From assembly GCA_963772365.1 (NCBI GenBank), contig CAVYXA010000001.1:672001-736000 (forward strand): a stretch of DNA of 64,000 bases, given 5' to 3'. The translations under genes were made by a program, and so were the position numbers. Positions 28,578-36,390 of this stretch are shown here, in pieces; positions within the stretch are counted from its first letter, which is position 1; each line of letters begins with the position of its first letter. The stretch comes from an uncultured Verrucomicrobiae bacterium. GTDB taxonomy: Bacteria > Verrucomicrobiota > Verrucomicrobiia > Chthoniobacterales > UBA10450. Under the pieces are notes generated by a model, which had not been told where the DNA came from, searched no databases, and was given only the letters and a program-made list of their open reading frames with translations.

Positions 28578-28623
28578 CATGGTAAATCACACCCTCGAAC
28601 TCTACCCGGACTTTCCTCGCCAT
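28578..28623 (-). mobile_element. N-terminal remnant of a Y1 HUH (RAYT/IS200-like) transposase
   Basis: MARKVRVEFEGVIYH, then similarity is lost; lies 30 bp from the GGGGTCAGTCC repeat. Confidence 0.75.
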
Positions 28624-28653
28624 TGCCGTCCTCATTGAGCCTTCGAAAACGGG

Positions 28654-28678
28654 AATGCAAGAAAAAAGGACTGACCCC
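28654..28678 (+). repeat. 25-bp inverted repeat, left copy: AATGCAAGAAAAAAGGACTGACCCC
   Basis: Exact reverse complement of 36366-36390. Confidence 0.95.
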
Positions 28679-28685
28679 CATTTTC

Positions 28686-29776
28686 CCGCGCGATCCGGCA
28701 TCGACCCCGCATTGATCGAGGATGTCTACTTCGGCGCTACCAACCAGGCCGGCGAGGACAACCGCAACGTCGCGCGCATGGCCGCGCTGCTGGCGGGCCT
28801 CCCCGCGTCCGTGCCGGGTTCGACGGTGAATCGCCTCTGTGCCTCGGGGCTGGAAGCCGTCAACATCGCGGCGCGCATGATCGAGGCGAGTCACGGCGAT
28901 GTGTTCATCGCGGGCGGCGTCGAGTCGATGAGCCGTGCACCTTATGTGCTGAGCAAGGCGGAATCGGCGTTCGACCGGTCGCAGCAGATCTTCGATACTT
29001 CGATCGGCTGGCGCCTGGTCAATCCTCGCCTGGCGGCGCTGCATCACCCCTTCTCCATGGGCGAGACCGCCGAGAACGTCGCCCGCCAGCACAAGATCAG
29101 CCGGGCGGATCAGGATCAGTTCGCGCTGCAGAGCCAGCAACGGTGGTCGGCGGCGCACCAACGAGAAAAGTTCGCCCAGGAGATCGTGCCCGTCGAGATT
29201 CCGCAGCGCAAGGGCGCTCCGACCCTCGTCAGCGTGGACGAGCACCCGAGGCCGGACACGACGCTGGAGAATCTCGCCAAACTGAAACCGGCATTCTCCA
29301 AAGACGACCAGGGCACGGTGACCGCGGGCAATTCGTCGGGTATCAACGACGGCGCGGCGGCATTGCTGATCGTGGAAGCCGGGCTGGCCAAATCGCTGGG
29401 TCTTCAGCCGATCGCCTTCATCGGTCCGAGCGCCGCGGCCGGCGTCGATCCCGCGTTCATGGGGCTCGGACCGGTGCCCGCGATTCGCAAGGCGCTTCTG
29501 CGCGCGGGACTGACGCTCGACCGCATCGACCTGTTCGAGTTGAACGAGGCGTTCGCCGCGCAGGCCCTCGCCTGCCAGCGCGAGCTGGGCATCGACAACG
29601 CAAAATTGAACGTCAACGGCGGCGCGATTGCGATCGGTCACCCGCTTGGTTGCAGCGGCGCCCGCCTGGCCACGACGCTGATCCACCAGATGGCTCGCAC
29701 CGGCGCCTCGCGCGGCATCGCGTCGCTCTGCGTCGGGGTAGGACAAGGCTTGGCGACCGTCTTCGAACGGGAGTGA
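28686..29776 (+). pseudogene. 5'-truncated thiolase (PcaF/PaaJ-like), fused in frame to the repeat
   Basis: NQAGEDNRNVARM, NRLCASG, NEAFA, GHPLG and CVGVGQG present; the N-terminal RTP.G segment is missing; visibly higher GC than its neighbours. Confidence 0.9.
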
Positions 29777-29915
29777 GTTTGGCAGTGGGCCTGACTGTTA
29801 GACCGTTCGAGCGCCCGGCGCTCGGGCAGCCTGAGCGCCTCTTGCGCGGAGAAGATCGACGCGCCAATCGAGTGAACACGTTGCGGAAAATTCGAAGAGG
29901 GCAGAGGTTCACAAG

Positions 29916-35134: not shown

Positions 35135-35151
35135 ATAATCGACTGACTACC

Positions 35152-35972
35152 ATGGACGATGATCTCCAACTTTACCGTCTTAAATTCGACAAGGACGCAT
35201 TCGCAAAACTGCCACAGGAAGAGCAAGTCTTTTTCATTCAATTGGGCCAAGTTGCCAACGACCTCCGTCACGTTTTCTTTCTTTGTGTCGCCGCTGAGAA
35301 AGGGACCAGATCGGATTCTTCTGACGAACGTAAGATCGCGCTTCACCAACTGCTCTTCGGCGTCCGCCTGGTTTACAGCATCCTTAATGAAGGCTGGAAA
35401 GTGATTTCGGAACGATGGAGCGAGAATGCTCTCGGCAAGCGTTGGCATCCTCAGCTTAGCCAAGAAGCTAAAGACTCTCTCGCCTTTCTTGGCCGATATT
35501 TTTCCAAACGAATCTGACTCGGACGATTCGCGACCATTTTGGCTCTCATTATCTCTCCGATCATTTACGAGAACCCCTCTTGCATGTGCCAAAGGCGGCT
35601 GCCGAAATCATTACCGGAAACCACAACGGGAATGTTTTTTACACCTTGGCAGAAGAGGTCCGGGCATTGGCGATGTTGCAATTGGCAGCGGAGCCGAGTG
35701 GTCCGAAAATTTGGGACAAGCAAGCGTCAGAAAGCGACATCAGGGCGGCCGCCGTCCGGCTGTACGAAAGTTTCAAGCCGGTGCGCGAAGCATTCGATCT
35801 ATTCGCAAACAATGTGCTCATCACGGTCGTGAAATCACTGCCGCACCGCACCGAGCGTTTCACAGCGCCGGCCGTCACCAACTTCTATGAGATGCGCACG
35901 CCGGTGTTCGTTGAGGAGCGTCCTTCGCACATTAGAACAACCGCCGCCACCGCAGCAAAACCGCAGAATTAG
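35152..35972 (+). pseudogene. Helical protein with a HEPN-like R-x5-H motif, frameshifted
   Basis: ORF pieces 35152-35517 and 35580-35972 are bridged by a frame reading TNLTRTIRDHFGSHY. Confidence 0.5.
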
Positions 35973-36013
35973 CTTCAGTCGGGAAAAACAATGCGGTCGG
36001 GTCCTCCGCTCGC

Positions 36014-36362
36014 TCATCCCATCGAAGCCAGCTTTGCAAAGCCGGACTTGAACGCCCCCACCAGCGTGTCGATCTCCGCTTCGGTCATCGGCGTGGAGAA
36101 CACGCACGCACCCGAGCTGATGATGATGCAACCTTCGTTGTAAAGGTGATCGAGCAACGCCTTGAGTCGGCGCGACTCGTCGGGCGTCGGGTAGGCTTCG
36201 CGGTAATTTCGTGGAGGCGTCTGCTTCATGTGCACCAGGAACATCGAGCCCGCCCCGGTGACGCTCGCGGGCGCGCCCGTCGCGCGGATCGCGCTTTCGA
36301 TGCCGTTCCTGGCCCGATCGGTCAGCGCGTTCAGGCGCGCCACCGCGGGTCGGTCGTCGCGA
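36014..36362 (-). pseudogene. C-terminal fragment of a class-III aminotransferase (GSA-aminomutase-like)
   Basis: RLNAL.DR.R.G....VTGAGSMFLVH...STPMTEAEIDTLV; begins at the repeat. Confidence 0.8.
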
Positions 36363-36365
36363 ATT

Positions 36366-36390
36366 GGGGTCAGTCCTTTTTTCTTGCATT
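36366..36390 (-). repeat. 25-bp inverted repeat, right copy
   Basis: GGGGTCAGTCCTTTTTTCTTGCATT on the + strand. Confidence 0.95.

Follow-up and report, generated by a model that had tools for sequence, protein, structure and literature searches.

The 64,000-nucleotide (nt) stretch of DNA analysed here (the window) comes from contig CAVYXA010000001.1 (positions 672,001 to 736,000 of the forward strand) of GCA_963772365.1, a metagenome-assembled genome (MAG) of an uncultured Verrucomicrobiae bacterium. This genome, referred to below as G000, consists of 6 contigs and 3.3 Mb, with a completeness of 90% and a contamination of 1.95%. Close to the middle of the window lies a 7,669-bp slice of DNA (28688-36356), which carries a 5'-truncated pcaF-like thiolase gene at its left end, the 3' tail of a class-III aminotransferase gene at its right end, and two broken cargo genes in between (Table 1). 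The slice is bracketed by two copies of the terminal inverted repeat (TIR) of a TIRtron, an element that encodes a RAYT-like Y1/HUH transposase (TIRYT), and beyond the right TIR there is an array of gene cassettes headed by thiC.

Table 1. Features of the locus, in window coordinates.
Feature	Position	Strand	Remarks
TIRYT (RAYT-like Y1/HUH transposase) remnant	28579..28623	-	first 15 codons (MARKVRVEFEGVIYH), then unrelated sequence
Leader between left TIR and transposase start	28624..28653	-	30 nt; 31 nt in the intact element of genome G352
Left TIR	28654..28678	+	CCCC tip at 28678 faces the block; upstream-end TIR of a decayed minus-strand TIRtron
Left spacer	28679..28687		CATTTTCCC; 9 nt between tip and slice
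5'-truncated pcaF-like thiolase gene	28688..29821	+	residues 40-401 of 401; stop ends at 29776; 45 nt conserved downstream; GC 0.67
Broken STAND NTPase gene	29916..35134	+	about 1,740 codons; distantly Avs4/PDC-M54A-like
Second cargo gene, no assigned function	35152..35972	+	split over two frames (35152-35517 and 35580-35972)
Class-III aminotransferase 3' tail	36001..36356	-	residues 325-440 of 440; stop 36014-36016; 13 nt downstream; GC 0.65
Right spacer	36357..36365		AATTCGCGA, read outward from the tip; 9 nt between slice and right tip
Right TIR	36366..36390	-	tip faces the block; element interior absent behind the TIR
Small open reading frame after the zeta-like gene	36391..36547	-	last few codons replaced by the TIR; cut at residue 52
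Zeta-toxin/AAA_33-like kinase gene	36544..37089	-	cassette of the thiC array; also follows thiC in four other genera
Two displaced thiC 3' tails on either side of a DUF2283 gene	~37116-37348 and 38041-38727 (within 37116..38727)	-	
Intact thiC	42389..44656	-	708 aa; TPP riboswitch at 44548-44656; head of the cassette array

The two copies of the 25-mer AATGCAAGAAAAAAGGACTGACCCC (28654-28678 on the plus strand and 36366-36390 on the minus strand) agree without a mismatch, as an earlier note on this DNA, made from the letters alone, had reported. Such an inverted pair is not expected by chance (0 in 100 shuffles), and the inverted repeat lengthens to 29 nt with 1 mismatch. In the whole of G000, the 21-nt core of the repeat (CAAGAA...GACCCC) has three perfect copies, namely the two full 25-mers of the window and a third one at G000:C3:669868, which differs in the first four bases of the 25-mer; a few degenerate copies are also present. 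A survey of 401 genomes of the same order detected the repeat in 12 of them, at 1-12 copies each, with a conserved part of about 25-27 nt and with flanks that vary on both sides. Among the GTDB species genomes, an exact 22-nt core occurs at 31 loci, 30 of which are in MAGs titled Verrucomicrobiota (Terrimicrobiaceae, Candidatus Udaeobacter, Chthoniobacterales, Spartobacteria, and 'Verrucomicrobiae'). The one other locus (L104) is in a MAG labelled Blastocatellia (Acidobacteriota), which could reflect cross-phylum transfer or a binning error; the exact core is thus nearly confined to soil Verrucomicrobiota MAGs.

Relatives in which the repeat flanks an intact gene disclose what kind of element it belongs to. 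In G352, two copies enclose an intact gene of 334 amino acids (aa) that starts MARKVRVEFEGAIYH; the upstream TIR lies 31 nt ahead of the ATG, the stop codon falls inside the downstream TIR, and the GGGG/CCCC tips point outward. G228 has an intact 327-aa Y1 protein that is flanked likewise, again with outward tips, and with these two genomes the intact MARKxRVE-type transposases for which the earlier note had proposed to search beside the repeat were found. The G352 protein matches the Y1_Tnp family (PF01797, E-value 2.1e-12), shows the motifs HYH and YIHLNP, and has a sub-threshold match to the NCBIfam model REP_Tyr_transpos (NF047646; E-value 4.9e-20, 71.9 bits, cut-off 80). The repeat also forms TIR doublets of 75-125 nt in G228 and G282, with tips outward. 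The tip reads GGGGTCAG in the window, in G228, and at the downstream end of the G352 element, and CGGGTCAG in the upstream copy of G352. The names TIRtron and TIRYT were introduced in a study whose available text describes a GGGGWSAS motif as shared by the TIRs (Di Nocera et al., 2013; PMC3733652), and most TIRYTs were later placed in subclass 2.1 of TnpA-Y1, which has a C-terminal helix-turn-helix extension, according to the available text of Quentin et al. (2018; PMC6006769). Since the tip GGGGTCAG fits GGGGWSAS and intact Y1 genes are flanked by the repeat, the 25-mer is the TIR of a TIRtron. Folding of either strand of either window copy gave no better hairpin than shuffled sequences did (z from +0.3 to +1.4), and neither a GTAG nor a CGTC tag is found in the repeat sequence. 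A Tn3-like end (GGGG...) was also considered for the repeat and was abandoned after the intact Y1 elements turned up.

The left TIR of the window is still attached to a vestige of its element. The remnant peptide MARKVRVEFEGVIYH is identical at 14 of 15 positions to the N-terminus of the intact G352 transposase, and the left repeat, the leader, and the 15 codons align colinearly with the G352 element, so the Y1/RAYT N-terminal remnant that the earlier note had seen outside the left repeat is genuine. It is the sole copy of this N-terminal motif in G000, the remainder of the transposase was not found elsewhere in the window, and near the right TIR there is no further copy of the repeat at up to 5 mismatches. 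As no intact cognate transposase is left in G000, the structure would be a fossil. The two tips face inward, opposite to the outward tips of the intact TIRtrons and of the doublets, and the block is therefore not the interior of a TIRtron but the DNA that separates the outer tips of two ends. Adjacent TIR elements always bracket the DNA between them in this way, and the inward orientation alone thus carries no weight. Nor do the two ends constitute a composite transposon, the left element being cut at codon 15, the right one being a bare 25-mer, and the flanks lacking a direct repeat.

A second, related TIRtron family is also present in G000, with an intact 350-aa TIRYT at C1:1727905-1728954. 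Its TIR, GTCAAGAATTGATGCCTGACCCC, occurs 18 times in this genome (core TGATGCCTGACCCC; TIR pattern GTCAAGA[AT]TTGATGCCTGACCCC), and loci of the family are found at C1:1726093-1728968, C3:399177-403514, C3:669833-672003, and C5:293829-298782. Its tips often precede short tandem repeats (TATTCC, TATCTT, and others) or re-duplicated units of 'GACCCC + 7-14 nt', and several of its transposase copies end abruptly at a TIR.

Both genes at the ends of the slice are incomplete. The thiolase open reading frame (ORF; 28655-29776) enters the Pfam profile Thiolase_N at position 37 of 260 and the PcaF model at position 42 of 400, while the aminotransferase tail covers positions 315-422 of 423 of a HemL-type model and nothing earlier. 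Homology to full-length relatives breaks sharply at 28687|28688 and at 36356|36357, and both cuts are exactly 9 nt past the CCCC tip of a TIR. A 5'-truncated, GC-rich thiolase on the plus strand and an aminotransferase tail on the minus strand, as first described from the letters, are borne out by the profiles and by the full-length relatives. The same description called them two cut housekeeping genes; cut they both are, 9 nt from the tips, and they are foreign rather than housekeeping genes of G000 itself.

The source of the slice is visible in related genomes. In a DNA search of 120 other genomes of the same family, at least 30 genomes, from many genera, match the thiolase piece at 95-100% identity, and all of these matches begin at 28688-28691. 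More than 20 genomes match the aminotransferase piece at 92-98% identity, and these matches end at 36356 or, where the copy is shorter, before it. The distance between the two pieces is 2.3-10 kb in the matching genomes. Twelve relatives' loci were read (L069-L080), and the nine that hold both genes have them in convergent orientation, 2.3-9.4 kb apart, with intervening DNA that differs in every genome. The aminotransferase is full length in all nine (437-440 aa), and a full-length thiolase ORF is present in eight (401 aa, or 411 aa via an upstream start in two), none being listed for L075. The cargo of these relatives comprises restriction-modification genes, a TIR-domain protein with an Hsp70-like partner, a caspase-like protease, AbiEii-like ATPases, HipA, PIN, and MazF. 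The thiolase/aminotransferase interval is a family-wide hotspot for defence and toxin-antitoxin genes.

Several lines of evidence establish that this slice came from elsewhere. There is no other thiolase in G000 and none in its congener G001, the aminotransferase paralogue of G000 is only 39% identical, and the two arms have a GC content of 0.67 (thiolase) and 0.65 (aminotransferase) vs. 0.55 for the genome. Relatives carry a gene 2.7 kb past the thiolase, and the orthologue of this gene in G000 is at C1:1777754, over 1 Mb away from the window. The window's own cargo recurs at about 96-98% identity in contigs from four soil metagenome runs; one contig bridges 29527-32135, and another spans 34102-36356 and continues. 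At 28688/28690 and at 36356, these soil contigs run into the exact uncut thiolase and aminotransferase sequence of the relatives. Thus an uncut thiolase-island-aminotransferase locus with the same cargo exists in nature, and the window holds a slice of it. The repeat is absent from the vicinity of this locus in the relatives. The slice is horizontally acquired, foreign to G000, and stripped of the 5' parts of both flanking genes, and the suspicion that foreign chromosomal DNA adjoins both CCCC ends was therefore right, the intact hotspot being present in relatives and in soil contigs.

Two further features of the hotspot deserve mention. Between genera, the flanking thiolase and aminotransferase genes are 95-98% identical in the loci L069-L080, the next genes outward 86-89%, and those beyond 72-84%, an outward fall that would be expected if islands were exchanged together with parts of their flanks. 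In addition, extra copies of their own 3' tails follow the thiolase and the aminotransferase in relatives (L078, G309:C4:213000-230500 at 4099-13148; also L077, L079, L075, L074, L071, and L073). G309, for instance, has six extra thiolase tails of 60-369 nt that are interleaved with HipA, PIN, and MazF cassettes. Aminotransferase tails measure 199-527 nt in relatives and 356 nt in the window. All tails have a constant distal end just beyond the stop codon and a variable 5' edge; the layout is integron-like, and no recombinase is present among the ORFs scanned.

The cargo between the two truncated genes is decayed. Compared with a homologue of 1,710 aa, the STAND NTPase gene loses its frame at about 33150-33620, has in-frame stops at 33432 and 33939, and has a frameshift at 34433; the soil contigs have an extra T after 34432, at the site of this frameshift. 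The window ORF matches NACHT below the cut-off (E-value 0.0024) and Avs4 over positions 785-910 of 1579 only (E-value 2e-7), and a PADLOC search gave no match. Its homologue in G017, which is 29% identical and retains an intact 1,710-aa frame, matches PDC-M54A (E-value 3.7e-14) and, partially, Avs4 (E-value 1.7e-12) in PADLOC, as well as NACHT (E-value 2.6e-5). The label 'Avs-like' given to the window gene in the earlier note would be fair but loose, since the gene itself is sub-threshold, PADLOC-negative, and broken, and the PADLOC matches belong to the intact homologue. The two frames of the second cargo gene would read as one gene, and soil contigs have an extra C at 35503/35508. This gene contains one Rx4H motif (RKIALH), and Atlas gives a weak lead, at 0.78, to HEPN_AbiU2, which 11% of the members of that cluster carry. 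No profile of Pfam, NCBIfam, or PADLOC matches the gene; the suggestion that it is HEPN-like has the motif and this lead in its favour and no profile match. Both cargo genes are broken, and the 'defence block' is a relic.

The site in which the slice stands is a second cassette array, unrelated to the hotspot. Below the intact thiC, which has a thiamine pyrophosphate (TPP) riboswitch, the order is a cassette of DUF433, PIN, HNH, and an EcoO109I fragment, a thiC tail (38041-38727), the DUF2283 gene, the other thiC tail (~37116-37348), the zeta-like kinase gene with the small ORF, and then the right TIR. The sequence just below the second thiC tail matches what follows thiC in G001. Homologues of the small ORF are open frames of 57-79 aa in seven of the nine best non-self matches, and homology to the G309 copy reaches 36385, a few bases inside the outer edge of the TIR; the rest of the small ORF was not found elsewhere in the window. 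In its present form, the small ORF continues in the same frame across the TIR and on into the aminotransferase tail, which creates a 177-aa fusion ORF (36014-36547). In G309, a degenerate TIR-like sequence lies downstream of the zeta/small-ORF copy. The slice is out of place in this thiC-downstream cassette array. An empty site could not be recovered by synteny with the congener, because synteny between G000 and G001 is too broken, and Rfam and tRNA scans of 20-46 kb gave the thiC TPP riboswitch as the sole match.

Cassettes separated by thiC 3' tails make up the array both in the window (36391-44656) and in G021 (L081, G021:C2:168000-181000 at 6705-11404), with two extra tails in the former and three in the latter. 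The cassettes are toxin-antitoxin or nuclease genes (DUF433/PIN_10/HNH_2/EcoO109I fragment, DUF2283, zeta-like kinase), and an integrase is not visible. Modules of a gene tail plus cargo, which the earlier note had imagined, are real: they occur here at thiC and, in relatives, at the thiolase and aminotransferase genes. They are a phenomenon of their own, unconnected with the repeat. The EcoO109I-like type II restriction endonuclease ORF (39325-39933, minus strand) starts at profile position 38 of 198, and a methyltransferase was not found in its cassette; it is probably another relic. A paralogue of the pair of zeta-like kinase and small ORF lies at G000:C1:197816-198496 with 66-80% aa identity, its kinase split over two frames. 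To the left of the block, 28149-28189 and 28476-28516 form a 41-nt inverted repeat (83% complementary) around 286 nt, the arms of which are part of a repeat of about 85 nt with copies at C5:72585 and C3:669671. Three other genera (G175, G017, and G159) share the 97-nt piece 28420-28516 at 87-93% identity, and it has no match in Rfam.

These data suggest, with a probability of roughly 0.55, that both joints between the slice and the TIRs were made by the transposase, be it through insertion, capture, or adjacent deletion. The reasons are that two of only three perfect copies in the genome sit at the two breaks, that each break is 9 nt past a tip, and that the left spacer CATTTTCCC is identical at 7 of 9 positions to the 9 nt past the tip of the third copy at C3:669868. 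Subterminal recognition sequences are known for the related IS200/IS605 enzymes. By analogy, the TIRYT would act at element ends located 9 nt outside the conserved 25-mer and would thereby make both joints, for which three routes can be envisaged: (i) two TIR ends could have transposed into the thiolase and the aminotransferase genes, either in the donor or here; (ii) resident ends could have attacked neighbouring immigrant DNA and deleted it up to targets inside a larger fragment (adjacent deletion); or (iii) cleaved ends could have been ligated to the 3' ends of incoming linear DNA. Route (iii) predicts the symmetric polarity that is seen, in which each strand has a 3' end of the slice that adjoins '9 nt + GGGG...' at the 5' end of the latter. 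A broader and much more tentative proposal is that TIRYTs are active end-joining machines, which might cleave DNA 9 nt beyond the GGGGWSAS tip and, through HUH chemistry, attach the resulting end to any available 3'-OH, so that chromosomal TIR ends would capture or trim foreign linear DNA. The idea in the earlier note that HUH-transposase ends are joined to foreign DNA is right in substance, apart from the block not being a TIR-bounded transposon.

A number of observations weigh against a transposase origin of the joints. This is a single case, and a survey of 63 distinct TIR copies in relatives, which considered ORFs of at least 70 aa that touch a tip, found 47 such ORFs; in all five Pfam-identifiable non-transposase genes among them, the first domain is entered at profile positions 1-6, so that a truncated gene is found at none of the five testable tips. 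The earlier note had looked to other copies of the repeat for ties to Y1 transposases or to truncation points, and only the former were found. Other inward-facing TIR pairs, in G001 (9.5 kb) and in G021 (30.6 kb), enclose no sharply bounded foreign slice. Both 29-nt junction strings have 0 matches in JGI metagenome contigs and are absent from the four soil runs. The best-matching public runs contain only 0.35 and 0.26 of the words, and the four runs represent relatives with uncut genes, which speak neither for nor against the junctions. A pre-existing tip-to-tip TIR dimer (spacer of at most 30 nt) was considered as the target and rejected, as it occurs in none of the 401 genomes. The 9 nt past the tip vary between genomes, and the placement of the element end at 9 nt derives from this locus alone. 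At its outer edge, the right TIR shares microhomology (AAAT.CA) with the native 3' terminus of the small ORF, which points to illegitimate recombination, and not transposition, in at least one step. To our knowledge, no TIRYT has been shown to be active. In the available text of PMC3733652, TIRYT activity likewise stands without demonstration, and cleavage assays are left as future work.

The inward pair was also considered as a recurrent mobile unit, and this idea was rejected; the G001 pair holds native aceK/malate-synthase genes with orthologues elsewhere in G000, and the G021 pair holds a defence-rich 30.6 kb without sharp foreign edges. The interval between aceK and malate synthase in G001 (L023, G001:C6:628000-647999 at 10725-13067) contains a GC-rich (0.63-0.66) isocitrate-lyase gene of 780 aa beside an isocitrate-lyase fragment (13235-13567), and it looks like a replacement by a foreign copy.

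A serious if unlikely alternative, which overlaps route (i), puts every transposase step in the donor: TIR elements would have inserted into the donor's thiolase and aminotransferase genes, and G000 would then have taken up a fragment, from within the left TIRtron as far as the right TIR's inner edge, and integrated it through illegitimate recombination. In keeping with this are the microhomology on the outer side of the right junction and position 19 of the repeat, where the three perfect G000 copies have T, like G352, G282, and G228, and where the degenerate G000 copies and the two best G001 copies have C; the T suggests that the perfect copies are recent immigrants. Moreover, G282, G087, and G002 possess both the TIR family and the thiolase locus. 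However, a TIR inside the thiolase or the aminotransferase is found in no sampled genome or contig, TIRs with an identifiable neighbour gene sit upstream of intact genes and not within them, and the third perfect copy, with its similar post-tip sequence, implies that the element was active within G000. Less probable again is an arrival independent of the TIRs, in which the slice is simply another cassette of gene tail and cargo produced by the tail-array process and the TIRs are bystanders at its edges. Tail-delimited cassettes are common (two thiC tails in the window, three in G021, six thiolase tails in G309), the 356-nt aminotransferase tail is within the 199-527 nt seen in relatives, and the G309 zeta/small-ORF cassette has its degenerate TIR-like sequence downstream. 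On the other hand, the thiolase piece measures 1,134 nt vs. 60-369 nt for array tails, a TIR lies within 70 nt of none of the 12 thiolase-tail copies in relatives, and it is very unlikely that chance would place both breaks exactly 9 nt from tips when there are three perfect copies per 3.3 Mb.

An assembly artefact is very improbable. Such a chimera would have joined a piece of a related population into the MAG at short repeats, and the 6 contigs, 90% completeness, and 1.95% contamination leave room for it, as do the identity of about 97-98% between the slice and other soil populations and the fact that no run holding the junctions was found among the public runs searched. Yet 25-29 nt is short for an assembler join, two symmetric false joints would be required inside one contig of 1.8 Mb, the repeat is a genuine genomic element that has a transposase remnant of its own, correctly in register, and the slice has frameshift mutations of its own relative to the soil contigs. 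Hardly credible, finally, is the reading in which the block is a TIR-bounded transposon or an invertible segment, with the repeat marking its ends or its recombination sites. Inward-pointing end genes are known from shufflon-type inversion systems, and here a perfect inverted repeat brackets a block whose end genes point inward, and the fusion ORF 36014-36547 reads through the right repeat. The earlier view that the inverted repeat bounds the block as a transposon nevertheless fails on the polarity of the tips, which is opposite to that of the intact TIRtrons and of the 75-125-nt doublets, and on the relatives' locus, which moves between genomes without the repeat. As for inversion, it would leave the outside ORF and the thiolase in different frames, and no recombinase or integrase domain was detected by Pfam among the window ORFs scanned (selected non-overlapping ORFs of at least 110 aa and extra ORFs around the block).

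If the joints are indeed the work of a TIRYT, the locus bears on an enzyme family whose cleavage site, activity, and effect on host DNA are absent from the available text of the papers that described TIRtrons in 2013 and classified them in 2018. Two natural joints between element ends and foreign DNA, both with the same 9-nt offset, amount to a concrete prediction of where the enzyme cuts, and they would be a first hint that TIRtron ends can reshape or capture horizontally acquired DNA. Were TIRYTs truly end-joining enzymes, they would offer a transposase-derived route by which the contents of a hotspot could be installed without homologous flanking genes for recombination. The analysis also uncovered the source, in that soil genomes of the Chthoniobacterales type share a defence hotspot flanked by thiolase and aminotransferase genes that are near-identical across genera. 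In this hotspot, as at the thiC locus, repeated gene tails lie between the cassettes, and no integrase is visible.

The element class itself is already known. Like the TIRtrons and TIRYTs of PMC3733652 and PMC6006769, so far as the available text of both goes, the elements described here have a RAYT-like Y1/HUH protein with a C-terminal extension of about 200 aa, non-palindromic TIRs of which the upstream one is set a short, constant distance ahead of the gene start and the downstream one overlaps the 3' end, and TIRs that occur as singles and dimers in modest numbers. The window differs in that only 15 codons of the transposase are left and in that two ends face each other across a foreign slice cut 9 nt past each tip. 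In the available text of the same two papers, there is no mention of captured or truncated host DNA, and a tie between the element and a captured or trimmed slice of a defence hotspot is absent from it. REPtrons are comparable in having a single-copy Y1 transposase between inverted copies of a dispersed short repeat, and the REP_Tyr_transpos match, although sub-threshold, points the same way; unlike theirs, the repeat of the window is non-palindromic, has no GTAG/CGTC tag, and is present at 2-12 copies per genome rather than hundreds. The IS200/IS605 family (IS608, ISDra2) shares the Y1/HUH catalytic domain (PF01797). Its enzymes cleave about 10-19 nt to the outside of the subterminal structure that they recognise, an offset that parallels the 9 nt at the joints of the window. 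However, IS200/IS605 elements have subterminal hairpins, no TIRs, and a fixed tetra- or pentanucleotide target, and neither hairpins nor a fixed target are seen here. The donor locus, in turn, resembles hotspots of defence islands that are exchanged by recombination in their flanks, such as those of E. coli (10.1101/2022.06.09.495481) and the tycheposons (10.1101/2020.12.28.424599), as far as the available text of these reports describes them, in that variable defence and toxin-antitoxin cargo lies between conserved convergent genes, with flanks that are 95-98% identical between genera vs. 72-89% for the next genes out. In contrast to those hotspots, the slice in the window retains stubs of both flanks, occupies an unrelated site in a genome without the hotspot, and is joined to transposon ends instead of being recombined into homologous flanks.

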